From the NCBI GenBank assembly GCA_965250675.1, contig CBDFPH010000003.1: DNA of 64,000 nt; one strand, written 5' to 3'. Below, piece after piece: positions 3,815-56,884 of the stretch. Numbering within the stretch: position 1 is the stretch's first letter; each line of letters begins with the position of its first letter. The stretch is from Leptothrix sp. (in: b-proteobacteria) (GTDB lineage Bacteria > Pseudomonadota > Gammaproteobacteria > Burkholderiales > Burkholderiaceae_C). The notes beneath the pieces are model-generated. The model was not told where the DNA came from. It did not search any database and saw nothing but the letters and a program-made list of their open reading frames with translations. The position numbers were made by a program, and so were the translations under genes.

Positions 3815-5737
<1,923 letters not shown>

Positions 5738-27447: not shown

Positions 27448-27475
27448 ATGCATGCCAATGCATATTATGTCAACC
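27448..27475 (+). other. dif-like site = attL of the prophage
   Basis: ATGCATGCCAA-TGCATA-TTATGTCAACC. The right arm resembles the XerD arm of E. coli dif (TTATGTTAAAT), and the 17-bp core recurs at 39466-39482 with one mismatch. Confidence 0.8.
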
Positions 27476-27586
27476 CGACTACGTGCCCGCACGCGCCCTG
27501 CGATCGCACTTGGCGCTTTGCTATCTTCTGTTAAGTCCCGCGATTTCACTCGATTTGCCCTTATCTGAGCCGGGGATGATTGATTC

Positions 27587-27994
27587 ATGTCAATCCACCT
27601 CATCCCCAAACACACGCCGAAGTTGTCCATTATCGTGGACGATCTTGCATGCTCTCCCGCTGCGGCCGCTGCCGCGCTGGGTGTCTCAGAGCGCACGCTG
27701 AAACGCTGGCTCGCCGATGACGAGGCGCCGCGGGCGGCGTGCCTCGCGCTGTATTGGGTGTCGCGCTGGGGACTGTCGGCGCTGGATTGCCACCTGCACC
27801 AGGCCGCGCAGATCTACGGCAACCAGGTGCGCGGCTTGGAGCGTGAGTTGCAGCGCGTGCGCGGCGAGCTGGCCCGCGTGCTGCACCACGCCACGTTTGA
27901 AAGCGCAAACGCCCCGACGATGATGGCGCCGGGGCGTCTGCCCTTGGTGTCTGCAGAGGTGGTGCAGCTGCGGCCGCGCCGGGTCAGGGGTTGA
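27587..27994 (+). CDS. Phage HTH (XRE-like) protein with C-terminal coiled coil
   Basis: AAAALGVSERTLKRW helix-turn-helix; GGGGA SD upstream. Confidence 0.75.
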   Translation: MSIHLIPKHTPKLSIIVDDLACSPAAAAAALGVSERTLKRWLADDEAPRAACLALYWVSRWGLSALDCHLHQAAQIYGNQVRGLERELQRVRGELARVLHHATFESANAPTMMAPGRLPLVSAEVVQLRPRRVRG

Positions 27995-28388
27995 GTGCCA
28001 CCCAGCCAGTGAGCTGGCAATTCTTGTTCGGCGGCACCACGGCGTTGTCCTGCAGGACGGCCGCCCGGTAAGCGCCCTCCTTCGCCATGGCGGCGACGAT
28101 CATTTCGTAGGGCGTGGCTGTGAAGCCGCCCGCGAACTTGATGCGCATGACGATCGACGACGTGGCGCCGTACTTCTCATGCTGGGGCCACGGGCCGCCG
28201 ATCACGTCAGCGTCAACAAAGCGCGCCGTGCGGTGGTAGCACTTCAGCGTCTGCTGTGCGAAGTCGATCACGCTGGCGTCCAGGGACAGCGCCTGCACTT
28301 GCCCGGGCTTGTTGAACTCGCTGATCCCCTGCTGCAGCACTGCGGGGTTCTGCATCATCATGGTCACGATGGTTGTAATGGGGTCCAT
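27984..28388 (-). CDS. Hypothetical phage protein (134 aa)
   Basis: AGGTGAG SD; natural composition; two Cys; no recognised family. Confidence 0.65.
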   Translation of the reverse strand: MDPITTIVTMMMQNPAVLQQGISEFNKPGQVQALSLDASVIDFAQQTLKCYHRTARFVDADVIGGPWPQHEKYGATSSIVMRIKFAGGFTATPYEMIVAAMAKEGAYRAAVLQDNAVVPPNKNCQLTGWVALNP

Positions 28389-28605
28389 GGCTCACCTGAG
28401 TTGTTCGCCCGGATTGGTGCACATCTGCAGCAGCGACGGCATCCCCCGGATGGGCGATTGACGCTTTGGCATCCAGGCGCTGTTCGATGCGCATCAGCGT
28501 GCGCTCGATGGCGTCGACGCGGCCGCCCAGCGTCAGGGCGTTGCCCGTCCAGCCGATCAGCAGCCCGGCCAGCGCCACGCCGATCTTCACCAGCATTTCA
28601 TTCAT
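28213..28605 (-). CDS. Putative lysis-accessory membrane protein (TM plus coiled coil); 3' end uncertain
   Basis: MNEMLVKIGVALAGLLIGW...RVDAIERTLMRIEQRLD; ATGA-coupled to the upstream holin-like gene; the tail overlaps the next gene and looks out of frame. Confidence 0.55.
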   Translation of the reverse strand: MNEMLVKIGVALAGLLIGWTGNALTLGGRVDAIERTLMRIEQRLDAKASIAHPGDAVAAADVHQSGRTTQVSHGPHYNHRDHDDAEPRSAAAGDQRVQQARASAGAVPGRQRDRLRTADAEVLPPHGALC

Positions 28606-28769
28606 CGGGCGCCCTCCTTCATCAGCACAGCTGCGGCGCCGGCCAGCGCGCCGGCCCACGCCTGCGGGTCTGCGCCCTTGCTGGCCAGCAGCGCGGCCAG
28701 GCTCTGACAGATCAGGCCCATGCCGGCCCAGGTCGAGGGTTCACGAAGTCGGTAGATGATTTTGCTCAT
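28602..28769 (-). CDS. Putative holin (55 aa, below the track cutoff)
   Basis: MSKIIYRLREPSTWAGMGLICQSLAALLASKGADPQAWAGALAGAAAVLMKEGAR: two hydrophobic segments, an REPSTW motif seen in small phage membrane proteins, charged C-terminus. Confidence 0.6.
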   Translation of the reverse strand: MSKIIYRLREPSTWAGMGLICQSLAALLASKGADPQAWAGALAGAAAVLMKEGAR

Positions 28770-28885
28770 TGATAGTGGTTTGTGGGTGGGGGGGATTCAA
28801 TACTCACCGGCAGGGGCTTGGAAATTTGGCGAGGCTGGTGGCACGGGCTGCAAAAGATGGGTTAGCGTTCCGCGACGAATAACAT

Positions 28886-29836
28886 TTGGGAAAACTGAAC
28901 ATGGGCGGGGACACTTCTACCCAACTCTCGGTGGAGCACTTCACGAGTGCAGCCGACTTTTTGCTTGCTTTGCAACCTGAACGCTGGGTTGACAGACAGC
29001 AGTGGAAGACGCCTTGGGTATTCCGCGGTCAGCTGCGGTCCGAATGGCCGTTGTTGCCCTCCGCATGGCGACCCACCGACGCTCTGATGACGAAGCTTGT
29101 AAGGAGCGCTGTCGATACCGTTGATCCGTTGTGCCTCACGCCGTGCTTCCCAGCGACGTCGCCAATTTCTGCCGAAACCTCGAATCGACTCCGGATTGCG
29201 TTGGCCACTGCAGCCATTGAGCAGAAAATCTGCAGAGAGTTTGCAGACTTGGCGAACTCTGCTGGTCAATACGTCCGCCGAATCCCTGGAGAACTTCCTC
29301 TGATCCGCCTTTTGGAACAGGGACCGCCAATGCGCCTCACCGGAGTGTCTGCTCCCGATGCGCTCACTGCGATGGCTCAACACCACGGGATGCCCACCAG
29401 CCTGCTTGACTGGAGCGGGAGCGGCCAAGTGGCCGCATATTTCGCTGCCGCGGCTGTGCCAGAAGCCAGTTCGGTGGCCGACGAACGCCTCGCCGTCTGG
29501 GCAATCAATAGAACGCGCATCGGCGCCAACTTCAAGGAAGTTCCTGTACATCGGTCCGAGTTGCCCTATTTGCATGCACAACACGGCACCCTTACCTACT
29601 TCTCCGATGGGGACGACTTTGGGCACGCTCATTTCGCGGAGAAGGGGGTGTGGCCCGACATAGCAACTTACGCACAGCCAGGCGCAATCAAGAAGCTCAC
29701 CCTTGCACACAGCGAAGCAGGAGAGTTGCTTAGGTTGCTTTGGCTGAGAGGTGTCTCGAAGGTTCACTTAATGCCCATCTTGGACAACGTCTCGGAAACC
29801 TTGAAGTTGCAGTGGAAGTGGAGCGGCATAACCTAG
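28886..29836 (+). CDS. FRG domain-containing protein (prophage cargo)
   Basis: WVFRGQ...WPLLPSAWR and AQHHGMPTSLLDWS...AAYFA are FRG-domain motifs; lower GC; antisense to the structural operon. Confidence 0.85.
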   Translation: MGKLNMGGDTSTQLSVEHFTSAADFLLALQPERWVDRQQWKTPWVFRGQLRSEWPLLPSAWRPTDALMTKLVRSAVDTVDPLCLTPCFPATSPISAETSNRLRIALATAAIEQKICREFADLANSAGQYVRRIPGELPLIRLLEQGPPMRLTGVSAPDALTAMAQHHGMPTSLLDWSGSGQVAAYFAAAAVPEASSVADERLAVWAINRTRIGANFKEVPVHRSELPYLHAQHGTLTYFSDGDDFGHAHFAEKGVWPDIATYAQPGAIKKLTLAHSEAGELLRLLWLRGVSKVHLMPILDNVSETLKLQWKWSGIT

Positions 29837-31029
29837 CCCAGAGGGATGAACTGCATCGTGATGGGCTTATTGGCTGCAATGCTGAAGGAGTCGCCTGAAC
29901 TGCCCCCTGGGCCAGCGCTGTTGGCCCACAGTTGGCAGTTGACCGGTTTTGAGGATGCGACGGCCTGCACCATCTCCAGCGTGAACGGACCCGCATAGGC
30001 GGCGACGTCCGGCGCGGTGTAGCCGAACATGTAGGGCTGCGCCACCACGCCCCCGTCAATGTCCACGAATCGGGGCGCCAGGATCAGGCTGCGCCCGGCC
30101 GCCAGGTTGACCCAGCCGGTGAACCGGCAAATCACGTTGGCTGCCCCCGTGGGGCCGCTGTAGACCGGGCACACCGCCGCGCTGTCGATGATGGCCGCGC
30201 TGGTCCCGATGGCTGTGCTGGTCAGGCTGGTGAGTTGCAGTGCGGTCGGTCTGCGCGGAATGTCCAGCATCCCGGCTGTCATGGCCGGCGCTGCCTCGAC
30301 CGCTTGATCGCCATCGCTGAACCAAGCGCGTCGAATCTCTACAACATCGTCGGTCGCTCCATCGAACTGGTAGAACTCGACGCCCGGGTACGCACAAACC
30401 ACGTCCGCAATGGCCGGGTTCTCGCCAACCGCGGTCGTGCCATCTGGCAACAGGATGTATGCCTTCCCGCCATCAAGCGAAAGCTCGACCGTGTACCACT
30501 TGTCAACGTCCAGCGCCTTGTTGTACCGACCGGTCTTGTAGTTGGTGATGGTGCCGTTTGTATTCGGCAAGTTCCCGATTGACCAGCCCCACCGATTGAA
30601 AACCAAGTGCGCCGGAGTCGGCGGAATATTGGCGCTAGCCGTCACGCTGTCCCGCCATGGGATCAGTGCCGCGGCCCCGTTTCTTCCTCCCGAGCCAGCC
30701 CGAAAGCGAATCTCCGCCCTGATGCGCTTGCAGCCGGCTGGCATTGGCATATCTGAGTACCACGCGCGCTGCCCGGCGCCTGCCGACGATGTGAGCACGC
30801 CGCCGGATGCAATGAGTGGAGCGCCGTTAGACCGAAAGGAGATTGCGCGGCCAGCCGACGACAGCACCGGCACACCGCTGGCGGGGTTCATCAGGTCAAC
30901 CGAATTTCCAGCCCTTGACACCGAGGATTGAATCGGCAGGATCTCATTTACCCCCGCCATCTGCTGCACCAGGCCGATCAGGCGGCCGTCGTCGTCGAAC
31001 TGGCCTTCTAGGTTTTGAATCGTCGTCAT
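29833..31029 (-). CDS. Putative spike / receptor-binding protein
   Basis: 398 aa, beta-rich and G/A/S/T-rich, with a lectin-like-looking middle (KWYTVELSLDG); last gene of the structural run. Confidence 0.55.
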   Translation of the reverse strand: MTTIQNLEGQFDDDGRLIGLVQQMAGVNEILPIQSSVSRAGNSVDLMNPASGVPVLSSAGRAISFRSNGAPLIASGGVLTSSAGAGQRAWYSDMPMPAGCKRIRAEIRFRAGSGGRNGAAALIPWRDSVTASANIPPTPAHLVFNRWGWSIGNLPNTNGTITNYKTGRYNKALDVDKWYTVELSLDGGKAYILLPDGTTAVGENPAIADVVCAYPGVEFYQFDGATDDVVEIRRAWFSDGDQAVEAAPAMTAGMLDIPRRPTALQLTSLTSTAIGTSAAIIDSAAVCPVYSGPTGAANVICRFTGWVNLAAGRSLILAPRFVDIDGGVVAQPYMFGYTAPDVAAYAGPFTLEMVQAVASSKPVNCQLWANSAGPGGSSGDSFSIAANKPITMQFIPLG

Positions 31030-31038
31030 GCGGGGCTT

Positions 31039-31158
31039 TCAGTTCATTCCGGCTTGCGATCGCAGCCAGGCGCGGAGTTCGGGGATTTGGCCGATGACGA
31101 ATGCCACGGTCATCGTCACGGCCAGCTGGCGGGCCACGTCGCGCACGAAACGGTTCAT
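31039..31158 (-). CDS. Small phage membrane protein (39 aa)
   Basis: MNRFVRDVARQLAVTMTVAFVIGQIPELRAWLRSQAGMN; ATGA overlap with the upstream gene; fills the gap between genes exactly. Confidence 0.65.
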   Translation of the reverse strand: MNRFVRDVARQLAVTMTVAFVIGQIPELRAWLRSQAGMN

Positions 31159-31613
31159 CGGAAGAGGCTGCCGGCGTAGAGGTTGTAGGGGTCTTCGCTG
31201 CCGCTGCCGCTGGCGAAGGTGCCGGCCTGCTCATAGACGGCAGTGCTGGCACCGGTGCGGCCCATGTCGGCCAGGCGCTGCAGGTCGTTGCCGAACAGCA
31301 GGGATGCGCTCGACGGCTGCACGGCTGGGCGCAGGGTGATCGGCTCGGTCAGGGCACGCTCTGCGGCCACGGTGCTGGGGTTCATCAGCTCGAAGATGCG
31401 GGAGCCGAGATTCCAGCTGTCGTCGCCGCTGGCAGCAGCACCCACCGCGTTGACGCTGCGGGCCGCCACGTTGTTCGGGCTGGCCGGGTTGATGGCGCCG
31501 TTGCTGACGGCTTCGCCAACGGTGCTGGCGCCCTTCCAGAGCACCCAGGCCGCGCCGCCCACGGCGGCCGCAATGGCGAACACCTGCATGTCGCCGAGAT
31601 TGAGCGCCTTCAT
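31155..31613 (-). CDS. Phage membrane protein (N-terminal TM)
   Basis: TM segment, then INPASPNN...VNAVG...WNLGSRIFE, a pattern I recall from PM2-like prophage proteins. Confidence 0.7.
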   Translation of the reverse strand: MKALNLGDMQVFAIAAAVGGAAWVLWKGASTVGEAVSNGAINPASPNNVAARSVNAVGAAASGDDSWNLGSRIFELMNPSTVAAERALTEPITLRPAVQPSSASLLFGNDLQRLADMGRTGASTAVYEQAGTFASGSGSEDPYNLYAGSLFR

Positions 31614-32263
31614 GCCAGCACCCCACCGGCTGTTTCGTACTTCGCCAGCAGCGTCGACAACTTGCGCTCAGGCTGGCCGTAGCCGGCGCCCGGCAGGCTC
31701 GCCCATTCGGCTTTGCACTTGCCGATGGCTGCTTCGATGCGACCGGCTTGCACGTCGCCCATGGCGCCACGGTTGCGGATCAGCCAGCACGCGGCCGCGT
31801 CCTGGTTCATCGGGCTGAAGTCCGCCAAGCCCAGGGCGCGGCGGGCGCTCAGCCAGGTTGCGCGGATGATCTGGTAGCGGCCGGCCGCAGTGCTCACCAT
31901 GCCGGCGTACTGGCTGCCGAGGTGCGCGATGCTCTCGCCGGTCCATTCGCGAGTCACGGCGGGGTGATCCGTGAACGACTGGATGGTGTGGCGGTAGCCG
32001 AAGCAGACGCGGTACGGGTCAGAGCGCAGGTCAGTGCCTTCAGCGGCTGCAATCATGCTCAGGAAGGCCCGCGTGTTGGTATCTCGCATGTCGGTGTCCA
32101 GGTTGCTTTGATCCATGAATCGGTCGATCGCGCCGATCGGATCGACGTAGTCCAGCGCGGTGGAGCCGTCGTCAGATTCAGCAGCGGCGGCGTCCGCTTG
32201 TGACCGCACCAGGAGCACGCCCAGCAGGGCGGCACCGGCGGCGATCACTATTTTTTTGTTCAC
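31610..32263 (-). CDS. Lambda-type lysozyme / lytic transglycosylase with N-terminal membrane anchor
   Basis: RAFLSMIAAAEGT, STAAGRYQII..TW, DFSP.NQD.AA, EWASLPGAGYGQ. Confidence 0.9.
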   Translation of the reverse strand: MNKKIVIAAGAALLGVLLVRSQADAAAAESDDGSTALDYVDPIGAIDRFMDQSNLDTDMRDTNTRAFLSMIAAAEGTDLRSDPYRVCFGYRHTIQSFTDHPAVTREWTGESIAHLGSQYAGMVSTAAGRYQIIRATWLSARRALGLADFSPMNQDAAACWLIRNRGAMGDVQAGRIEAAIGKCKAEWASLPGAGYGQPERKLSTLLAKYETAGGVLA

Positions 32264-33024
32264 AGCGTCTCGACTTCAAACCGCACGTTCAGGTTTGCGC
32301 CGTTGGTCAATGCCTTGAAAAGCAGATAGCTGCCAGGCGGAAGGACGAACGGGGATTTCGAGTAATCGAACTCGTTCTGAACTGCCGGCTGAATCAAATA
32401 ACTGTGCCGAGATTTTGAGCTTGGAAACTTGGCATCGAATGCACCCAGCGTTGCGTAGCTGTTTGCAAAAATGTCGCACTGGCCCACCGGCAAATCAGGG
32501 CTGCCAATCAATTTATTGAAAACCGTATCGGTCGCCAAAAACCCAGCGGCAACAATGTTTGAGCCAGATATTGCAGAAACCAATGCGGCAGTGTCTGAAG
32601 AAATGTTCAGATTGGTAATTGCCAGCGGTGTCGTCCCATTGTTTCGAATGCCGGCGATAGGCTGATTCCCAGCAGTGCCGCTGATACCGATCGTGCCGAT
32701 GTAGCTTTTGCCAGCGAGGGTCTTTTCGGCGCTGCTGTCGATCACCCGCACGTTGCCGGGCTGTCGACGGCTACCGCCCCGGCCGGTTTCCATCACCAGG
32801 ATCTGCACGGTTTGAGCCGTGGGCGAGTAGATGACGAACGCGCCGTAGGTGTCTTCCAGGAACAGGCCGGAGACGGCGTTGACCATCTGGTCAGACTGGC
32901 GGCCGCTGGCTTCGTAGAAGTCGATGCGCACCGGGCCGCTGGACTCGATCAGCTCGAAGTAGCGCCCTGCCCGCTCGAAACGCTTGGTCTCGCCCGCAGT
33001 CAGGGTGATGGACAGAAGTTCCAT
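32260..33024 (-). CDS. Putative penton/spike protein
   Basis: Beta-rich N-terminal ~100 aa at host-like GC; visibly AT-richer C-terminal domain; position in the structural module. Confidence 0.55.
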   Translation of the reverse strand: MELLSITLTAGETKRFERAGRYFELIESSGPVRIDFYEASGRQSDQMVNAVSGLFLEDTYGAFVIYSPTAQTVQILVMETGRGGSRRQPGNVRVIDSSAEKTLAGKSYIGTIGISGTAGNQPIAGIRNNGTTPLAITNLNISSDTAALVSAISGSNIVAAGFLATDTVFNKLIGSPDLPVGQCDIFANSYATLGAFDAKFPSSKSRHSYLIQPAVQNEFDYSKSPFVLPPGSYLLFKALTNGANLNVRFEVETL

Positions 33025-33027
33025 GGA

Positions 33028-33834
33028 TCAGGCTTTCTTGAAGAACGAGAGGGCCACCAGGCCGGCAATGGCGAACATGGCGTACTTCATGACGTCCGCG
33101 CTCTTGTTCTCGGCCGGCTGATAGGTGCTCATGGCCGATGTGGCGATGCCCTGAGCGGCTTTCAGCGTGCCGTCGGCACTGCTGAAGATGCGATCGAGCG
33201 TGTCGCCCGAGATGTCGAGCGTGTGCCCCCAGGCCTGCGCGCTGTTGCTCTGCGCCTGCCCGAACATGGACGTGACCGACTCACCCGAGGTGCGCAGCGC
33301 GTCATAGCCGAAACCGGCCAGCACGCCCACGGCGTCGCCGTTGGCTTCAGCCTGCGCGCCCACCAGCTGCGCGCCGATCTCTGCAAACCGCACGGCGCCG
33401 GGGTCGGTGCCGGTGATGTTGGTCGAGCGGTTGGAGTAGTCCGCGAACGTGCTGGCGTAGCTGTCGGCGTCGTTGACCGAACGGTTCGAGGTATCCGACC
33501 AGGTCGACGTGTCCTGGTCGAAAACGGTGGTTGACCGGTTCGAGGTGTCGGACCAGGTCGACGTGTCCTGGTCGTAGACGTTGGTCGAGCGGTTCGAGGT
33601 ATCCGACCAGGTCGACGTGTCCTGATCGTTGACGTTGGTCGACCAGTTCGACGTGGTCGTGTTGTTGCGGTTGCTGCCGGCGTTGGTGTTGTCGGTGCTG
33701 TAGTCGAGGTACTGGCTGTTGTCGGACGAATCGAACGTGTTGGTGTTCGTCGTCGAGACGTAGTTGCTGCTCGTCTGCGCACTGGTGGTCTTGTTGCCAC
33801 CACTGCCGATTCCCAGGAAGCTCAAGAGGCCCAT
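33028..33834 (-). CDS. Phage membrane protein with 18-aa tandem repeats (candidate DNA delivery protein)
   Basis: S/T/D/N-rich; (NVxDQDTSTWSDTSNRST)x3; C-terminal TM followed by KKA. Confidence 0.75.
   Translation of the reverse strand: MGLLSFLGIGSGGNKTTSAQTSSNYVSTTNTNTFDSSDNSQYLDYSTDNTNAGSNRNNTTTSNWSTNVNDQDTSTWSDTSNRSTNVYDQDTSTWSDTSNRSTTVFDQDTSTWSDTSNRSVNDADSYASTFADYSNRSTNITGTDPGAVRFAEIGAQLVGAQAEANGDAVGVLAGFGYDALRTSGESVTSMFGQAQSNSAQAWGHTLDISGDTLDRIFSSADGTLKAAQGIATSAMSTYQPAENKSADVMKYAMFAIAGLVALSFFKKA
33482..33643. repeat. 54-bp tandem repeat, 3 copies plus a degenerate fourth to the left
   Basis: CGGTTCGAGGT(A/G)TC(C/G)GACCAGGTCGACGTGTCCTG starts at 33482, 33536 and 33590. Confidence 0.92.
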
Positions 33835-34292
33835 CAGGATTTCGCTTTCTTGGCCTTGAGGATGACCAGCACCATCAAGCCCAGCATGATGTAGGTGGTG
33901 GTATTGCCACCCGCCTGAACCAGCGCGAACGGCTCAGCACCATCACCGGTGATGGAGTCGAACCCGCTCAGCGCCGGCACGCCGTAGGCGTACTGCGTGG
34001 CCTGCGCTTGGCTGACCTCAAACGGGTTGAAGCCCGCCGTAGGCGGCAGGGGCAGCGCTGCAGCGCCCACGCGCTGCGTGGCCGTGCCGCGACCCGTCGC
34101 CACGTTGATGCCCAGGGTCGGCCCGCCGTTGGAGATGCCACCGGTGTTGGCCGGGCCGCTGTAGCCGTCGTTGAACGACAAGCCCAGGCCACCGGCCGCG
34201 CCTCCACCCGGCATGCCGGGCATGCCAGGGGGCACGCCCATGGCGGCCATGCCCATGCTGGCGAGCAGCGCCGTCTGCTGACCGTTCGCCAT
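33834..34292 (-). CDS. Phage membrane protein (G/P-rich, C-terminal TM)
   Basis: Ends YIMLGLMVLVILKAKKAKS. Confidence 0.75.
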   Translation of the reverse strand: MANGQQTALLASMGMAAMGVPPGMPGMPGGGAAGGLGLSFNDGYSGPANTGGISNGGPTLGINVATGRGTATQRVGAAALPLPPTAGFNPFEVSQAQATQYAYGVPALSGFDSITGDGAEPFALVQAGGNTTTYIMLGLMVLVILKAKKAKS

Positions 34293-34295
34293 AGG

Positions 34296-34700
34296 TCACG
34301 CCATCGCCAAGTAGGCGACCAGGGCGGCAATGATGAGCGTGGTGGTCGAGCTTTGCGCGGCAGGCGGTTGCGCGGCGCCGGCCTGGTTGCCTGCGCCGTT
34401 CTGGTACGTGCGGCCGTTCTGGCCGGAGAACGTGCCGGGGTTGGTGTTGCCGCCAATGCCGGCCACCTGCCCCGGCATGGCGTTGTCGATCGCACGGGTG
34501 GCGCCGTACATCACCAGGCGCTCCCACCACGGCGCGGCCGGGTTGCTGTTGACCGGTGCCGGGGTGTAGGGGTTCATGCGCTGAGCTTCCGCACCATCGC
34601 CCGGCATGAAGTACGGATTGCCCAGCAGCGTCTGTTGCTCAGCGGGGAGACCGGCCACGTAAGCGTTCGCGTCGCTGGCGAAAAGGTTGTAGTCGCTCAT
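34296..34700 (-). CDS. Phage membrane protein (C-terminal TM)
   Basis: Ends TLIIAALVAYLAMA; directly downstream of the capsid gene. Confidence 0.75.
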   Translation of the reverse strand: MSDYNLFASDANAYVAGLPAEQQTLLGNPYFMPGDGAEAQRMNPYTPAPVNSNPAAPWWERLVMYGATRAIDNAMPGQVAGIGGNTNPGTFSGQNGRTYQNGAGNQAGAAQPPAAQSSTTTLIIAALVAYLAMA

Positions 34701-34712
34701 CGCATGGTCCGA

Positions 34713-35546
34713 TCAGAGCTGGCTGTTCAGCGCGTAGCCTTCGACGTAGATCCCGATCGTGTCCGCGCCGCTGGTGCGCAGGCGAATGTCCAGGTTCTGC
34801 ACCGGCACGGCCTTGCCGGCCGCGACGGTGAACGCGGTGTTGAACGCGTTGGACTGCAGCACGTCGGGCATGAAGTCCACGATGTGGAAGCCAGCCTGCG
34901 GCAGGTTGCCGAAGTCCTGTTCGCGGAAGTTGGCCAGGGCCACGGGCACGTCTTCGTAGATCTCGACGCCGTCGCGGCGCACGCGGGCCGCAGCCAGGTT
35001 GCCGCCGTGCTTGAGCACCAGGCGCTTGACTTGGAAGCCTTGCGCACCGAACGGCAGGTAGATCATTTCTTCGGCGGCGGCCGCGATCACCTTCTGTTGG
35101 TACATGACGCGGTGCACGATCGTGTTCGCGCTGGGGGATTCCACGTCGGCATACACCGTGATGCCGCTGCCTGCGGCCGGCACGTAGGTGCCCAGGTCGA
35201 ATTCAAGGGTGAAGTCCTGCACGCCGGCCTCTTGGCACGCGGCGATGGTGCCCAGCGTCATCGCGACTTCTTCACGGGCGCGGCGCTCGGTGAAGTCGAT
35301 CACGAAGAAACCGGCGTTCAGCGTGTTGCCCTTGTACGCGTTCAGCGCGTCCAGGTCAGTCGCCAAATTCCAGCGCTGGAATTCTTTGTTGTTGAGGCGC
35401 AGCGTGATGTTGCTCATCAACGCCTTGGTGATGTTCGTGCCCAACACGAAGTACAGCTTCTGGTAGACCACACCCAGGGGCAGGCGCAGCGAAACCCGCG
35501 TGTTCGGGCTGACGTTCTGAAGGGCGGGGAGCTTGATGATGCGCAT
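34713..35546 (-). CDS. Double jelly-roll major capsid protein, PM2 P2-like
   Basis: 277 aa. LQNVSPNTRVSLRLPLGVVY matches the pattern of PM2 P2 IPNVAAGNSCSIKLPIGQTY as I recall it; also FFVIDF, HIVDFM...QNLDIRL...IYVE; adjacent to the packaging ATPase. Confidence 0.88.
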   Translation of the reverse strand: MRIIKLPALQNVSPNTRVSLRLPLGVVYQKLYFVLGTNITKALMSNITLRLNNKEFQRWNLATDLDALNAYKGNTLNAGFFVIDFTERRAREEVAMTLGTIAACQEAGVQDFTLEFDLGTYVPAAGSGITVYADVESPSANTIVHRVMYQQKVIAAAAEEMIYLPFGAQGFQVKRLVLKHGGNLAAARVRRDGVEIYEDVPVALANFREQDFGNLPQAGFHIVDFMPDVLQSNAFNTAFTVAAGKAVPVQNLDIRLRTSGADTIGIYVEGYALNSQL

Positions 35547-35570
35547 TGTTTTCCTTGGGTGTGAAGTCGA

Positions 35571-35687
35571 TCAGCCCATCAGCGCCTTGTCGACCAGCGG
35601 CTTGGCCGGGCCGATCTTGCGGAGCACAAAAATGGTGAGGAGGACGACACCGGTCGTCATCAGGGCGTCTTTGACTTTGCTTTGCAT
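35571..35687 (-). CDS. Small phage membrane protein (38 aa)
   Basis: MQSKVKDALMTTGVVLLTIFVLRKIGPAKPLVDKALMG; single TM; just upstream of the capsid gene. Confidence 0.7.
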   Translation of the reverse strand: MQSKVKDALMTTGVVLLTIFVLRKIGPAKPLVDKALMG

Positions 35688-35799
35688 GGGGTGTTCCGTT
35701 CTGGATTTGAGGGGGTGAAGAGCCGCCAGTAAACCCCCGCCGAACGTCACGAACAACCCCCCGCCAACGTACCCGTATACGTATGGAAAACGCGCTGAA

Positions 35800-36483
35800 T
35801 CACCGCCCCGTGAACGGGGTTGATCGCTCCGTGAACTTGCCGTTGCGAATGTGGATTTCGCCCGCGATCAGCGTCTTCTCGCGCCTGTCACGTTGCAAGT
35901 AGCGGATCACCACGCCGGTCGGCGTGTCGTCGGTCTGAAGCAGGCCCATGGCCGAATCAGGGCAGTCCAACTCACGTGCCATCGCGCGGCGGTCGGCCTC
36001 ATAGCCCAGGCCGAAGCACCTCACGCGGGTGCAGTTGCCAAGGAAGGTTTTGTCGATCAGGGATGGCCGCTGCGCCGCGCCCAGCACCTGCAGGCCCCGG
36101 TGCCGGCCCTGCGTGGTGATCCGGCGCCAGGCGGGCGGCGCATAGCCCGGTGTCGTCACGTCGGACAGCTCTTCGGCCAGGAAGCACAGCGCGCCCGCCT
36201 CGAACGCCAGCGCGCACACCAGCCCGAAGGCGTCGGCCAGCTTCAGGGCCGATCCCGGCACGTAGCGCACGCGGATCGGCCCGGCGCCGGCCTTGCGGAA
36301 TGCGGCCACCAGCGCCGGCAGCGTGCGCACGGCCGGGGCCTGCTTGGCGTACTCGTCGCGGGGATCCCAGATCAGCAGCCGGGGCGGTGCCAGCTCGGCG
36401 AGCCGGCGATTGATGCTCACGCCCTTGCCGCTGCCCGAGGCGCCGATGTAGGCCTCGATCTGGGGGCGGTTGGTGACGCTCAT
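35800..36483 (-). CDS. Genome packaging ATPase (FtsK/HerA superfamily, A32/P9 type)
   Basis: Walker A GASGSGKG, LIWDP, Walker B FLAEEL, QGRHRG...AAQRP; ATG 36483 overlaps the upstream stop. Confidence 0.9.
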   Translation of the reverse strand: MSVTNRPQIEAYIGASGSGKGVSINRRLAELAPPRLLIWDPRDEYAKQAPAVRTLPALVAAFRKAGAGPIRVRYVPGSALKLADAFGLVCALAFEAGALCFLAEELSDVTTPGYAPPAWRRITTQGRHRGLQVLGAAQRPSLIDKTFLGNCTRVRCFGLGYEADRRAMARELDCPDSAMGLLQTDDTPTGVVIRYLQRDRREKTLIAGEIHIRNGKFTERSTPFTGR

Positions 36484-36908
36484 GCGCGGCGCTTGCGCTC
36501 TTCGGCGGCCAGCTCCATCTGTCGCTGCTTGAACGCGAAGTAGGTGGCGACGCACGGCGGGATGATTGCGCACAGCATGGCGATATACGGCCCGTATTTG
36601 CTGGCAACTTCGCCCATGTTCCAGCCGTGCTGCTCCATGATCGCGGCCGCGCTGTCAGCGATCTGGCGTAGCTGATGGTCGCTCCAGACTGCCGCGAACT
36701 GCGGCCACCAGGTGACAGCAGGCGCCGCGATCATGCGGCCCATCTGCATGAATGCGATCAGCTCATCAGCCGTGCTCATGGCCGGCGCAGCGCCGGGCAG
36801 CGCGGCGGGCGCGGCCGCAGATTCCAGCGCGGCCGCTTGGGCTTCCAGCGCGGCCAGGGGATCGCCAGCGGGGGCGGGCTGGTCGATGATTTCGGTTTCA
36901 GTGGTCAT
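36480..36908 (-). CDS. Phage membrane protein upstream of the ATPase
   Basis: C-terminal TM (YIAMLCAIIPPCVATYFAF) followed by a basic tail. Confidence 0.72.
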   Translation of the reverse strand: MTTETEIIDQPAPAGDPLAALEAQAAALESAAAPAALPGAAPAMSTADELIAFMQMGRMIAAPAVTWWPQFAAVWSDHQLRQIADSAAAIMEQHGWNMGEVASKYGPYIAMLCAIIPPCVATYFAFKQRQMELAAEERKRRA

Positions 36909-36912
36909 GGGT

Positions 36913-37218
36913 TCACCAGCTCATCAGGGATTTGCGCGCCGGCGCCGCAGGGGCTGCAGCGGGCGCGGTTGAGGGGGTAGGCGCGGCCGGTGCTGGTGCG
37001 GGCGCTGGCGGTGCCATTGCGGGTGCCGGCGCCGGCTCGGCAATGTGCCTCGCCCGTAACGAGGAGTCGGACGCGTCGCCGCGCGCAAACGTCTGCGATT
37101 TGCAGTCGCTGCACGTCACGTAGGGCAACAGCTTTTTCGACACACGCAGGCGGGCCTGTTCGGACCCGCACACCGGGCAGCGGCACCGCCCGATTTCGTT
37201 TTCGCGGGCGGCGGTCAT
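36913..37218 (-). CDS. Zinc-ribbon protein (candidate late transcription activator)
   Basis: CPVCG...YVTCSDC...TF; A/P-rich tail. Confidence 0.72.
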   Translation of the reverse strand: MTAARENEIGRCRCPVCGSEQARLRVSKKLLPYVTCSDCKSQTFARGDASDSSLRARHIAEPAPAPAMAPPAPAPAPAAPTPSTAPAAAPAAPARKSLMSW

Positions 37219-37415
37219 CAGTCGACCAGGACGGGAGCCACGGGTTCCGTGCGGGCCTGCGCCACGGCCAGGGTTTCCAGCGCGGCGGCAGTGGCGGTCA
37301 TGAACTCTGCGGCCAGTTCGCCCAGGCGGACGATGGGCGCCGGGACGAATTGCCGGCTGGAGTTGTCGACCAGGTGCTGTGCCTCAGCGGCGATTTCTGC
37401 GGGGGTGCGGTTCAT
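37218..37415 (-). CDS. Hypothetical phage protein (65 aa)
   Basis: Tightly coupled to both neighbours. Confidence 0.6.
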   Translation of the reverse strand: MNRTPAEIAAEAQHLVDNSSRQFVPAPIVRLGELAAEFMTATAAALETLAVAQARTEPVAPVLVD

Positions 37416-38302
37416 GGGTGGTTCTCGGGTGGGTGGCTCGGTTCAAGAGCCGGGGTGGACCGCCGTTCAAGTTCTTTGAACGGTCGGGGAATTCCTTGTC
37501 CTACTGGTGACGGGGTTACGGGCTGCTGGCGTTGCTCAGGATCAGGCCGTAGAGCCGTTTTGGGGGGCGTGGGTGCCCTACCCCCTTGGGGGTCTGTTTT
37601 TGAGCGCAGGAAGCGCTCCCTGAGCGCCTGAGCGCGCATGACTGCCGTGCGGCTGTCGACGGCGGGCGCTTCGTCGCTGGCAGGCGGCGGGGGGGCGTGC
37701 CGCGCAGCGGCTTCATTCAACCCCCCTCGGGGGGTCTGTTGAACCCCTCCCTCGACTGCTTCAGTCTGTGGATAACTTGCGGTCTTGGGGGTAGGGGGTT
37801 TTAAGAAATTCTTCTTGAAAGAGCTGTTCTCTTTCGTGTTTTCTTCGTGTTGTGAACTTGAAGAATTCGTTGCTGCGTAAGGGGTTGATGCACGTTTGTG
37901 GCTGTTTTCATCCCTGTTCAATTTTTCCGTGGACGTGCTTTTCCAGACCCTGGGTGCGATCTGAAAAAACAGGACTTGCTCGGTCTCCGACCGGCCCTTG
38001 TCACGCGCCAGGATCAGCAGCTTCTCGAAGGCCGCCAGCATCGTGCGCACCTGCTGCAGGCTGATCGTGGGGAGCCGCTTGCCGCGTGCGGGCTGGTCGG
38101 GCTGCAGGGCGTTCAGCAGCTCGCCGTAGCTGGTCTTCACGGTGCCCTTCTTGAAGTCGCTGAAGGCGGCCAGGCACATGAACAGGCGCGTGCCCCACGC
38201 CGGCAGGCCCCAGAGGGCTTGCCACTCGTGTTCCAGGACGGGAAGAAAAAGGGCCGAACCCGGCCCGAAGTTGTGGGAGCGAACGAGCTGCATCACCATC
38301 AC
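37412..38302 (-). CDS. Putative replication initiator (wHTH-like N-terminus, low-complexity C-terminus)
   Basis: Largest early gene; helical N-terminal ~120 aa; AT-rich internal tract; no HUH or polymerase motifs seen. Confidence 0.55.
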   Translation of the reverse strand: MMVMQLVRSHNFGPGSALFLPVLEHEWQALWGLPAWGTRLFMCLAAFSDFKKGTVKTSYGELLNALQPDQPARGKRLPTISLQQVRTMLAAFEKLLILARDKGRSETEQVLFFQIAPRVWKSTSTEKLNRDENSHKRASTPYAATNSSSSQHEENTKENSSFKKNFLKPPTPKTASYPQTEAVEGGVQQTPRGGLNEAAARHAPPPPASDEAPAVDSRTAVMRAQALRERFLRSKTDPQGGRAPTPPKTALRPDPEQRQQPVTPSPVGQGIPRPFKELERRSTPALEPSHPPENHP

Positions 38303-38520
38303 ACGTCCAGCCTGATGAAGCGCACCACGGCGGCCTGGTGGTCGTAGCCGGTGTCCCAGAGGTAGGCCACGCGGGCCTTCTCTTCCGCGTCCAGGACGCT
38401 GCGGGCCATGCCCGACCAGAGGAAGCCCGATGCTTCGTCAGGGTGGCTCAGGCAGACGGCGTACCGCAGCTGCTCGGCACGTGGCCGGGCGCGCAGGAGG
38501 GGGAGGATGGCGGCCTTCAC
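38299..38520 (-). CDS. Hypothetical phage early protein (73 aa)
   Basis: Overlapping start and stop codons with neighbours. Confidence 0.6.
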   Translation of the reverse strand: MKAAILPLLRARPRAEQLRYAVCLSHPDEASGFLWSGMARSVLDAEEKARVAYLWDTGYDHQAAVVRFIRLDV

Positions 38521-38705
38521 AGGGCGCCCTCAATGTGCTCTGCTGCAGCGCGGATGACGCCAGCACGGCGGCGCAGCTCGCGGCGCTTGCTTTCGTCCGG
38601 CTCGTAGGCGGCAGCTTGCTCCAACTCGCCGTATTTCTCCCATGCCGCTTCCATGGCTTCGCGGGCTTCTTCGTCGGTCAGCTTGTAGAGCTTGAAGTTC
38701 TTCAT
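38517..38705 (-). CDS. Hypothetical phage early protein (62 aa)
   Basis: Charged helical peptide, coupled to neighbours. Confidence 0.62.
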   Translation of the reverse strand: MKNFKLYKLTDEEAREAMEAAWEKYGELEQAAAYEPDESKRRELRRRAGVIRAAAEHIEGAL

Positions 38706-38929
38706 GCTTCCACCCCTGCCCGCGCAAACAGCCGGCGGCGCTCGACGGCGGGCTTGACGTTCTCCAGCGGCTCGACGTGCTTCCAGGTCGGGAAGCCTGC
38801 GACGCGGATCAGCGCGGCCGGGCGGCCTGCGCGGTCACGGCAGAGGTTGGCCAACGTGCCGAAAAGCTCGGTGTCGGTGCAACCGAAGGTGAACCGGACT
38901 TGATCGCCCGGCTGGAATGCTGCGTTCAT
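38702..38929 (-). CDS. Hypothetical phage early protein (75 aa; may start at 38995)
   Basis: FQPGDQVRF start resembles small SH3/KOW-like beta-barrels. Confidence 0.55.
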   Translation of the reverse strand: MNAAFQPGDQVRFTFGCTDTELFGTLANLCRDRAGRPAALIRVAGFPTWKHVEPLENVKPAVERRRLFARAGVEA

Positions 38930-39044
38930 GGTGATGGCCTCTTGCGCCGGCCCCGTCTTGCCCCTTGCCCCCTCGGAGGGGGCCGCTGCGCTCACGGTGA
39001 CGGGGCCAGCCGTCAGAAACCGTGAATTGCGCAGCGACGGCGAG

Positions 39045-39116
39045 AGGATACGTACAGCGTCGCTAGACAGTCAAGCGACGCTGTACCTTGCCCCATGGTT
39101 TTCTAGGGCGTAAAGT
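39045..39116. promoter_or_regulatory. Divergent promoter/operator region of the prophage
   Basis: Leftward TTGACT(39074-39069)-N18-TATCCT; rightward TTGCCC(39088)-N17-TAAAGT(39111); perfect 13-bp inverted repeat 39052-39064 / 39074-39086. Confidence 0.65.
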
Positions 39117-39146
39117 GTCACTAGACGTTTCAACCGGGGCCAGCCA

Positions 39147-39479
39147 ATGAAGACAGTCGAATTTCTGGACGCACTCAAGCGTCAGCACTCGATCGAGAGC
39201 GATTACGGGGTTTCCAAGCTGCTGGGGATCACCCGCCAGCGCCTGAGCAACTACCGCTCAGGGCGCGATTTTTTCGGGGATGAGATCGCAAGCCAGGTTG
39301 CGCAGATGCTCGGGCTTGACCCGGGCTATGTGATGGCCTGCGCCCACGCAGAGCGGGCCGCTACAGCAGAGATTCGGGCGGTGTGGGAGAGCGTCGCGGC
39401 CAAGCTGGCCGGCGTGGGCGCCGTTGCAGCGCCCGCCCCGTCAAAGGCTCAGAAGAAGGAGCCTTTGCATATTATGTAA
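39147..39479 (+). CDS. Prophage repressor (XRE-like HTH), 3' end overlaps attR
   Basis: SDYGVSKLLGITRQRLSNYRSG HTH; divergent from the early operon; the last codons H-I-M-stop are the att core. Confidence 0.82.
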   Translation: MKTVEFLDALKRQHSIESDYGVSKLLGITRQRLSNYRSGRDFFGDEIASQVAQMLGLDPGYVMACAHAERAATAEIRAVWESVAAKLAGVGAVAAPAPSKAQKKEPLHIM

Positions 39480-39482
39480 ACC
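39455..39482 (+). other. dif-like site = attR of the prophage
   Basis: GAAGGAGCCTT-TGCATA-TTATGTAAACC; 16 of 17 bp identical to 27459-27475. Confidence 0.8.
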
Positions 39483-55816: not shown

Positions 55817-56884
55817 ATGAAGTCTTACCCGCTGTTCCCGTCGATCGAGGCTGAAGACCTGCGCACGGAGTTGCTGGCGCTGTTCGAGCGCTGGCTGGCC
55901 TCCAAGCCCGGGCGCAGCCGTCAGAAAGTGCATGCGCTGGCCAATGAGTCGGCCCATGTCTATCGGGACATGTGGGGCGCGTTCGCATCGTTCTGCATTC
56001 CGCTCGATGAGGAAGGGTTGCACTACGTGCGGGTTAACCCGCTGCAAGGCGTGCGCCGGGAGCAGATGCAGCTTTTCCTGTCACTACCCAACCCGGGGCC
56101 GCGAGCGCCTGGTCGGGGCCGCGTCCGCAATGACGCGCTGGCGCTGCGCTACGCCTGGCGCATGCTGCACCTGATCGACCGGGTGCTGACGTTCCACCGC
56201 ATCCGCAAAAAGGAAAAAAGCGCCGGTCCCACGGCGGCTGCAGCGCTGTTGCTGGAAGCGCCCTACCGCTACGCCAACTCGGCCGCGCTGAATCCTGAGA
56301 CGGAAATCCTCAGCGACGGCGAACTGAGGCGGCTGATGGCGCTGTTGACTGCCCCGTTGCCAAGCAACAGTTCGCCGCGCGGTGAATGGCGCCTGGTGCG
56401 TGACCGGGCGCTGGTGGCGCTGATGCTGGGCGCCGGGCTTGGCCCCGGCGACGCGCAAGGCCTGCTGCTGGACGGGCTGGCGCTGGAGGATGGCCCCGTG
56501 CCCGGCGTGCCGTGGCGCTTGACCGTGCCGGCCGATGGCCTGTCGCCTGAACATCAGACGCCGGTGGCGCAATGGGCGGGAGAGTTGCTGGCACGTTGGC
56601 TGGCGTTGCGCACGGCCAAGGCCATTGCCGGCGACTTCGTGTTTCCGTCCACCCTGAGCGGCAAACAATTGTCCCGGCCGGCGGTGCACAGTGCGGCCGT
56701 CAGCGTGCTGGAAGCAGCCGAGGTCATGGGCGGCGCTCCGTTCCGTTTGCGGCACACTTTTGCCGTGCGGCAGTTGACCAAGGGCTACTCGGAAGAACAG
56801 GTGGGCGCCTGGATGGGCATGGTCGAGTTGCGCACCATGCAGCGCTACCGCAAGTACGTCGTCAAGGCGCAGGATCTGGCCTGA
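55817..56884 (+). CDS. Tyrosine recombinase-fold protein with degenerate active site
   Basis: RDRALVALMLGAGLG, LRHTFA, TMQRY align to the XerD boxes. Confidence 0.8.
   Translation: MKSYPLFPSIEAEDLRTELLALFERWLASKPGRSRQKVHALANESAHVYRDMWGAFASFCIPLDEEGLHYVRVNPLQGVRREQMQLFLSLPNPGPRAPGRGRVRNDALALRYAWRMLHLIDRVLTFHRIRKKEKSAGPTAAAALLLEAPYRYANSAALNPETEILSDGELRRLMALLTAPLPSNSSPRGEWRLVRDRALVALMLGAGLGPGDAQGLLLDGLALEDGPVPGVPWRLTVPADGLSPEHQTPVAQWAGELLARWLALRTAKAIAGDFVFPSTLSGKQLSRPAVHSAAVSVLEAAEVMGGAPFRLRHTFAVRQLTKGYSEEQVGAWMGMVELRTMQRYRKYVVKAQDLA

Follow-up and report, generated by a model that had tools for sequence, protein, structure and literature searches.

The closest described relatives of the element reported here are the "dif-type double-jelly-roll (DJR) phages", which include PM2 and were systematised in December 2025 together with their attP types (28-bp, or left- or right-armed 17-bp) and the P16/P15/attP module (Commun Biol 2025, PMC12715192). 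The same study describes P16-attP-P15 as the lysogeny module of PM2-like phages, reports P15 as a homologue of XafT, and shows excision for the Pseudoalteromonas phage Cr39582. Here we analyzed a 64-kb stretch of contig CBDFPH010000003.1 (C3; assembly GCA_965250675.1), termed the window, in which positions 27476–39465 hold what is, judged from its genes, an apparently complete 12.0-kb temperate tailless phage of the PM2-like type (Vinavirales, corticovirus-type) in a Sphaerotilus species. Our reading, to which we assign a probability of roughly 0.8, is that this phage lacks an integrase of its own and was inserted at the chromosomal dif by the XerC and XerD recombinases of its host.

Integration by XerCD at dif has been proposed for the tailless membrane phage NO16 of Vibrio ('Asemoviridae'; PMC9966536), and the use of XerCD/dif was left open for some integrase-carrying Vibrio prophages (PMC11630473). 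In TLC-phi and VGJ-phi a small attP-adjacent gene (XafT and XafV, respectively) activates Xer independently of FtsK (PMC6744903; bioRxiv 10.64898/2026.06.12.731946). For the Betaproteobacteria, Krupovic and Bamford listed corticoviral elements in 2007 without mapping att or dif, raising CTX-phi/XerCD only as a possibility for elements without recombinases (PMC1950889), and in 2019 DUF3653-bearing integrative mobile elements that exploit Xer (IMEXs) were noted near dif in beta- and gammaproteobacteria (PMC6744903). A preliminary description of this locus named dif-integrated tailless prophages for Vibrio and none for Betaproteobacteria; this holds insofar as we found no paper placing a corticovirus-like prophage at a betaproteobacterial dif, but not for the corticoviral elements and the DUF3653 IMEXs as such, both of which had been reported there.

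The element shares with the dif-type DJR phages of Vibrio and Pseudoalteromonas (PM2, Cr39582) a size of ~10–12 kb, the tailless type, a P2-type capsid, a P9-type ATPase, the lack of an integrase and the location at dif. Likewise, its 17-bp one-armed attP falls between the P16 gene and the P15-position gene, which form the sole opposite-strand operon, and variable cargo separates the latter from the lysis genes; the attP of PM2 is also XerD-armed. It differs in its betaproteobacterial host, the non-canonical XerC arm of the host dif, a P15-position protein without the DUF3653/XafT core, and a replication module of a type that we did not recognise. With TLC-phi, a satellite of Vibrio cholerae (PMC6744903, PMC9226527), it has in common one good Xer arm, a small helix-turn-helix (HTH) gene beside attP, and a degenerate arm proposed to block FtsK-driven excision. 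However, TLC-phi keeps the XerC arm and has no XerD arm, whereas the present element is its mirror image, with a good XerD arm and a degenerate XerC side; moreover, TLC-phi is a filamentous-type satellite encoding a DUF3653 protein, whereas the present element is of the DJR type with no DUF3653 detected. Rhodobacter phage Jorvik (PMC10589892) is also a membrane-containing circular dsDNA phage without integrase, with dif-like attP and attB and proposed use of XerCD, but its host is an alphaproteobacterium and its attB lies in the cbbII operon, not at the terminus dif. Finally, the corticoviral elements of Methylibium, Ralstonia eutropha H16 and Methylobacillus (PMC1950889) resemble it in combining a PM2-like capsid/ATPase core with swapped replication and lysis modules.

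Two dif-type sites delimit the prophage

The 17-nt sequence TGCATATTATGT[C/A]AACC occurs in two exact copies in the window, at 27459–27475 (C variant) and 39466–39482 (A variant). Using TGCATATTATGTMAACC as the search pattern and 100 shuffles of the window as the chance level, 0 matches were expected, and the whole assembly (3.93 Mb, 12 contigs) contains the same two copies only, even when up to two mismatches are allowed. The copies, each comprising a central region and an XerD arm, differ at one base and define a repeat unit of 12,007 bp. With the adjoining XerC sides they form two 28-mers that bound window positions 27448–39482, corresponding to C3:147,759–159,793 in contig numbering:

27448–27475, plus strand: attL, with the host XerC arm ATGCATGCCAA, the central region TGCATA and the phage-derived XerD arm TTATGTCAACC; a complete regenerated dif
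39455–39482, plus strand: attR, with the phage pseudo-arm GAAGGAGCCTT, the central region TGCATA and the host XerD arm TTATGTAAACC; a crippled site

The crossover position falls within the 6 bp of the dif central region. The phage attP reconstructed from these sites is one-armed, consisting of the TGCATA central region and the good XerD arm TTATGTCAACC, whereas its XerC side is coding sequence: it provides the last codons of the repressor gene 39147–39479, whose TAA stop falls inside the XerD arm, as read from the translation. The preliminary description had set out the repeat pair at the element ends, the same two 28-mers and a phage XerC-side arm that doubles as coding sequence, and on each of these points the sequence reads exactly as it had claimed.

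At 39442–39467 a nine-pair hairpin spans the phage pseudo-arm; the T-rich central region and the XerD arm come next, an arrangement resembling a P16 terminator. As the hairpin is not kept in 14 related sites, we discarded the idea that it functions in attP. This also sets the element apart from CTX-type IMEXs, filamentous ssDNA phages whose attP is folded from two inverted sites, as do its DJR capsid genes and lack of inovirus genes. Among the matches listed in a metagenome scan with the 17-mer, the sequences were unrelated and none had common flanks.

The occupied site corresponds to the chromosomal dif

No canonical dif was found in the genome with the E. coli dif consensus and core. The XerC arm of the genus is divergent and was recovered only through XerD-arm scans of relatives. 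The Sphaerotilus dif obtained from these scans reads (AT)GCATGACGA-TGNNNA-TTATGT(C/A)AA, i.e. GCATGACGA-TGNNNA-TTATGTMAA, and each of 12 other Sphaerotilus genomes contains it a single time at 0–2 mismatches; adding Sphaerotilus mobilis (G017, 3 mismatches) and the window brings the genomes with a single site to 14. Three-mismatch matches in other genomes were not dif-like, and a reversed-pattern control gave no matches. Counted by eye, the XerC arm of attL agrees with the genus consensus ATGCATGACGA at 9/11 positions, and the reconstructed XerC arm with that of E. coli at 2/11.

Across the Sphaerotilus sites (L045–L057, L063, L064) the non-canonical XerC arm ATGCATGACGA stands against the betaproteobacterial xxTTCGCATAA, and the central region varies (TGTATA, TGTGTA, TGAATA, TGTTGA, TGTTTC, TGTGCA, TGTGTC, TGCATA). 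The same unusual type of XerC arm is found in the dif reported for Rhodoferax ferrireducens, ACTTGATACGA-TGTATA-TTATGTTAAGT (PMC2731167).

The left flank of the element, in the order phaR, GDSL lipase, SpoU methylase, upp, 2-hydroxyacid dehydrogenase (HADH) and dif, is syntenic in four relatives (G016, G013, G021, G041). HADH adjoins dif in G016 and G013, as in the window, and lies 2.6–4 kb from dif in G021 and G041. Each of the four has one dif-like site and no phage genes within the 15–20 kb examined, and by this comparison their dif loci are genus-level empty sites. The preliminary description had pointed to relatives as the place to look for the empty site, and there it is, unoccupied and syntenic on its left side.

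The cumulative GC skew of contig C3 peaks at 164,449, 4.7 kb to the right of attR. Furthermore, the octamer GGGNAGGG, which resembles FtsK-orienting polar sequences (KOPS), occurs 20 times on the plus and twice on the minus strand left of attL, and 4 times on the plus and 34 times on the minus strand right of attR; an unbiased octamer scan placed GGGCAGGG among the most strand-skewed. The skew maximum together with the flip of KOPS polarity at the locus indicates that the replichores converge here. Judged from these comparisons, attL and the single-copy genus dif are orthologous, and the element occupies a real chromosomal dif.

A second genus-conserved motif, ATTATGTCAAAGCC, was considered as another Xer site and discarded, as a conserved protein-kinase gene begins there (start codon region ATG TCA AAG CC). 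The motif CGATTATGTCAAAGCC at G000:C6:6418–6427, found once per genome across the genus (L015, L017, L018 and others), is the start of a Ser/Thr-kinase-like gene.

The element carries no recognisable recombinase

When the genome was searched in six frames, PF00589 gave 18 matches and PF00239 gave 1, none of them inside C3:147,759–159,793, and the open reading frames (ORFs) of the element matched no recombinase family in Pfam, PHROGs or NCBIfam; that no recombinase is recognisable inside, as had been stated at the outset, is thus borne out. With 17 recombinases from the host genome as queries, phmmer gave no match in the 13 elements of XerD-armed design (the present one included) and their 5-kb flanks, and none in wider related loci except one marginal flank match; the leave-one-out control recovered 16/16 tyrosine recombinases. 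The host genome encodes XerD (355 bits, above the curated cut-off), an XerC-like paralogue (309 bits, the best match, just below the cut-off) and an FtsK with gamma domain (FtsK_gamma, 95 bits). The PF00589 match nearest to the element is a solitary weak tyrosine-recombinase-like ORF (39 bits) at window 56396–56854 (G000:C3:176707–177165), outside the element and 17 kb to its right.

Related prophages share the layout in Betaproteobacteria

Relatives were collected by a capsid-profile scan of species-representative genomes (24 loci), to which two loci from a family search were added; 23 of the 24 scan loci lie in Burkholderiales, Rhodocyclales or unclassified Betaproteobacteria. Sphaerotilus mobilis DSM 10617 (G017/L215) carries a related prophage at its own dif, with a capsid 72% identical and att sites ATGCGCAACGA-TGTTGA-TTATGTCAACT and GCGGGGCTGTC-TGTTGA-TTATGTCAACT located 11,050 bp apart.

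The XerD-armed geometry, in which one end holds a full dif whose host XerC arm is good and the other combines a good XerD arm with a random-looking XerC side, was observed in 13 elements including the present one, among them those of S. mobilis, Cupriavidus, Burkholderia, Rhodocyclus and Rubrivivax. Their central regions are identical or near-identical, the sites are spaced by 10.0–12.5 kb, and in every case the capsid gene is on the other strand. Four further loci, L217 (Telluria), L218 (Duganella), L235 (Burkholderia sp. SRS-46) and L221 (Cupriavidus sp. U2), show the mirror, XerC-armed design: the phage retains the central region and an XerC-type arm (reading TTATGCGAA along the operon strand), its XerD side is degenerate, and the regenerated dif therefore has the prophage on its XerC side. 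Whichever design is used, the P15-proximal arm is the good one, and the other is given up to the terminal part of the P16 coding sequence. Together, at least 17 related betaproteobacterial prophages (13 XerD-armed and four XerC-armed) have the integrase-less, dif-flanked layout, and the dif-type design was found in Sphaerotilus, Cupriavidus, Burkholderia, Paraburkholderia, Rhodocyclus, Rubrivivax, Roseateles, Duganella and Telluria.

An unintegrated relative, L240 (Logan SRR25018334 contig, 12,103 bp), has genes continuous from a Phage_GPA Rep through the capsid; its attP, GCCTCGCAGTC-TGTATA-TTATGTAAAGT, falls within the 3' end of the P16-like gene, and the P15-like gene follows after 75 bp. 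At the equivalent place PM2 reads CGTGCTTACGA-TTTATA-TTATGTTAAAT. The form of attP proposed in the preliminary description therefore recurs intact in both and represents the normal design of this virus group. In a second near-complete unintegrated corticovirus-like relative with a Phage_GPA Rep, L242 (11,377 bp), no dif-like site was recognised. In L228 (Roseateles violae) the sites at 5004 and 16518 around the capsid gene both have degenerate XerC sides (GGTCTGGGCTC, CCGTAACAGTC), which points to IMEXs arrayed in tandem, with the true host dif farther out.

Gene content of the prophage

ORFs were chosen by their third-position GC (GC3) and are compactly arranged, mostly on the minus strand:

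27587–27994, plus strand: P15-position gene, 135 aa, XRE-type HTH followed by a long helix; weak HTH Pfam matches and a local match to PM2 P15
27984–28388, minus strand: orf134, in the variable cargo region; high GC3, no family matches, absent from relatives
28886–29836, plus strand: FRG-domain cargo gene; Pfam FRG 9e-14, phrog_4962, PADLOC PDC-S15 9e-23
29833–31029, minus strand: orf398, in the variable region; no Pfam, PHROGs, PADLOC or NCBIfam match, not kept in relatives
31155–31613, minus strand: orf152, in the position of the lysis module; partial match in the S. mobilis prophage
31610–32263, minus strand: endolysin; phrog_90 1.7e-42, 59–61% identity in the S. mobilis and G301 prophages
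32260–33024, 33028–33834, 33834–34292 and 34296–34700, minus strand: structural or membrane/spike-position genes, four in number; contiguous, high GC3, located downstream of the capsid gene, no family matches
34713–35546, minus strand: double-jelly-roll major capsid protein, PM2 P2 type; Pfam P2_N 3e-31, P2_C 1.6e-25, phrog_8536
35800–36573, minus strand: genome-packaging ATPase, PM2 P9 type; phrog_2666 1.2e-21
36480–37415, minus strand: orf142, a zinc-ribbon P14-like factor (36913–37218) and orf65; weak Lar_restr_allev zinc-ribbon match, conserved in relatives
37412–38995, minus strand: variable early/replication module with orf296 (37412–38302), orf73 and orf97; no family or PDB matches
39147–39479, plus strand: P16-type HTH repressor, 110 aa in the prophage; DUF3693 and HTH matches, phrog_638, 40% identity to PM2 gp c/P16 (E 8e-14)

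The two Pfam capsid matches agree with the tailless phage named in the preliminary description. The packaging ATPase shows 31% identity to the PM2 genome (tblastn) and 64–68% to the closest prophages; the identity of the capsid to the PM2 genome was under the tblastn threshold, and a single-protein capsid scan of viral contigs gave no match. Three of the four membrane/spike-position genes (all except 33834–34292) are partly conserved in the closest prophages. The region 28000–31100 is cargo, comprising the FRG-domain gene, a candidate anti-phage defence by its match to the PADLOC candidate defence family PDC-S15, and two ORFs that have no family matches and are absent from relatives. The FRG-domain gene is found in none of the related prophages, and its place is the variable stretch that separates the P15-position gene from the lysis genes.

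No HUH Rep was recognisable in the early module, which is not of the PM2 rolling-circle type. The AlphaFold2 (AF2) model of orf296 is poor, with a predicted local distance difference test score (pLDDT) of 48 and a helical domain of only ~100 aa, and homologues of orf296 occur on 11–13.5-kb contigs.

In the circular form the plus-strand P16 and P15-position genes become neighbours with attP between them. Integration alters the carboxy-terminus of the repressor, which has 110 aa in the prophage, ending at a TAA in the host-derived XerD arm, versus 142 aa in the reconstructed circle, where the phage arm reads TCA in place of TAA and the ORF runs to 27568. Five related elements (L219, L230, L231 and G301, listed with the window) read the site in the repressor frame, 4/5 of them ending at TAA in attR with C or T in the attL copy; in other related elements the site is read as VYYVK and the ORF passes through.

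The P15-position protein and the XafT/DUF3653 family

The 135-aa protein shares its HTH and the next helix with PM2 P15 and with the true DUF3653 P15 of a related prophage, L225, where the DUF3653 gene occupies the P15 position. Aligning it with DUF3653-type P15s by hhalign gave 82%, but the DUF3653 core (W-G-W/F...L-x-x-P-x-G) is absent. A six-frame search of the genome with PF12375 gave no match at E up to 10. The AF2 model has a pLDDT of 74.5, with 85–95 over residues 10–105, and Foldseek against BFVD returned generic XRE HTH matches only. Membership in XafT/XafV therefore found no convincing support by Pfam, the PF12375 search, hhalign or Foldseek/BFVD. A counterpart of the agent that takes the FtsK-independent activation step in TLC-phi and VGJ-phi was thus not found; by its position the protein is a candidate regulator or Xer helper.

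Proposed integration route and alternatives

By its sequence the element has the traits of an IMEX: it lies in dif, is bounded by repeats sharing the central region and has no integrase, and its host encodes XerC, XerD and FtsK. Integration would proceed by crossover within the central regions of the host dif and the one-armed attP, generating attL and attR. XerD would bind its own arm on both partners, whereas XerC would bind the host arm and be drawn to the phage side by cooperativity; the Xer biology behind this scheme is given in PMC5357621 and PMC9226527. attL, combining the host XerC arm with the phage XerD arm, is a complete dif and would still be able to resolve chromosome dimers. By analogy with the attP variants of TLC-phi, attR, with the phage pseudo-arm and the host XerD arm, would be a poor Xer substrate, and the prophage would be shielded from FtsK-driven excision; for degenerate TLC-phi attP variants, escape from such excision was shown experimentally (PMC9226527).

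Several points weigh against Xer-mediated integration of a viable phage. The dependence on Xer, the first-acting recombinase and any help from the P15-position protein are inferred. This protein is no demonstrable member of XafT/DUF3653. As orf398, orf296, orf268 and orf254 have no assignable function, a small probability of a novel recombinase is left, and with an early module lacking a recognisable replication gene the phage may no longer be viable. When proteins from the two host flanks were looked up by exact identity, using three choices of start, no further assembly of the species emerged that could provide a same-species empty site.

The preliminary description suggested a route possibly distinct from the known IMEX classes. 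This suggestion is weakened, as the one-armed 17-bp attP had already been catalogued for Vibrio and Pseudoalteromonas DJR phages, including that of PM2 (PMC12715192). It is conceivable, though we regard it as rather unlikely, that the XerD-armed attP uses a biochemically uncharacterised Xer route, with XerD on both partners and XerC recruited by protein contacts only, helped by a new activator, i.e. the DUF3653-less HTH/coiled-coil protein in the P15 position, or by no phage factor. The P16-attP-P15 split and the altered repressor carboxy-terminus might then act as a switch between the integrated and the free state.

Among the alternatives, the one that survives best, although we consider it improbable, is that the phage integrated by Xer once and is now a fixed, non-mobile remnant unable to excise or to make virions. 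It would account for the lack of a recognisable replication initiator, in contrast to the Phage_GPA Rep of relatives, and an attR without an XerC arm should make excision inefficient. However, the conserved core of capsid, ATPase, P14-like factor, endolysin, P16 and P15-position gene is intact and uninterrupted, and the att sites differ at one base only. Moreover, the 11–13.5-kb contigs bearing orf296 homologues at the Rep position resemble whole phage genomes, and replication modules are interchangeable in this group (PMC1950889).

A dif-targeting recombinase encoded by the phage itself (orf398, orf296 or another ORF), with host Xer uninvolved, is considerably less probable still. Several ORFs lack a match in Pfam, PHROGs, NCBIfam, PADLOC or the PDB, and some dif-located tailless Vibrio prophages do carry integrases (PMC11630473). 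Against this, orf398 and orf296 are not kept among related dif-integrated prophages, whereas the att design is; orf296 is modelled as a small helical domain plus disorder; and the profile searches for tyrosine and serine recombinases as well as the phmmer search described above left the element, and the 13 XerD-armed elements with their flanks, clean. A crossover in the dif central region beside a bona fide XerD arm is, furthermore, what Xer requires.

That the repeat arose by chance or target duplication at a site other than dif, as the 2/11 likeness of the XerC arm to E. coli and the failure of the E. coli consensus might suggest, is refuted by the genus dif scan, in which genus and family use this non-canonical arm, by the KOPS polarity and by the left-flank synteny, the site being single-copy, syntenic and at the skew/KOPS switch with 0 chance matches expected.

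Implications

Integration of an integrase-free PM2-like phage by host XerC/XerD, as we read this locus, extends the dif-type DJR lifestyle, described in Vibrio in 2023–2025, to a new host class and adds no new mechanism. What goes beyond the published work that we found is the breadth of the design in Betaproteobacteria, the occurrence of XerD- and XerC-armed versions together, and a P15-position gene without DUF3653. Prophage finders readily overlook such small prophages or set their bounds wrongly; in draft genomes these elements mark dif and the terminus. The two arm polarities within one virus group offer natural mirror-image substrates for studying how XerC and XerD handle half-sites. Integrase-free tailless membrane phages that parasitise dif are common in freshwater and soil Betaproteobacteria, beyond the marine Vibrio.

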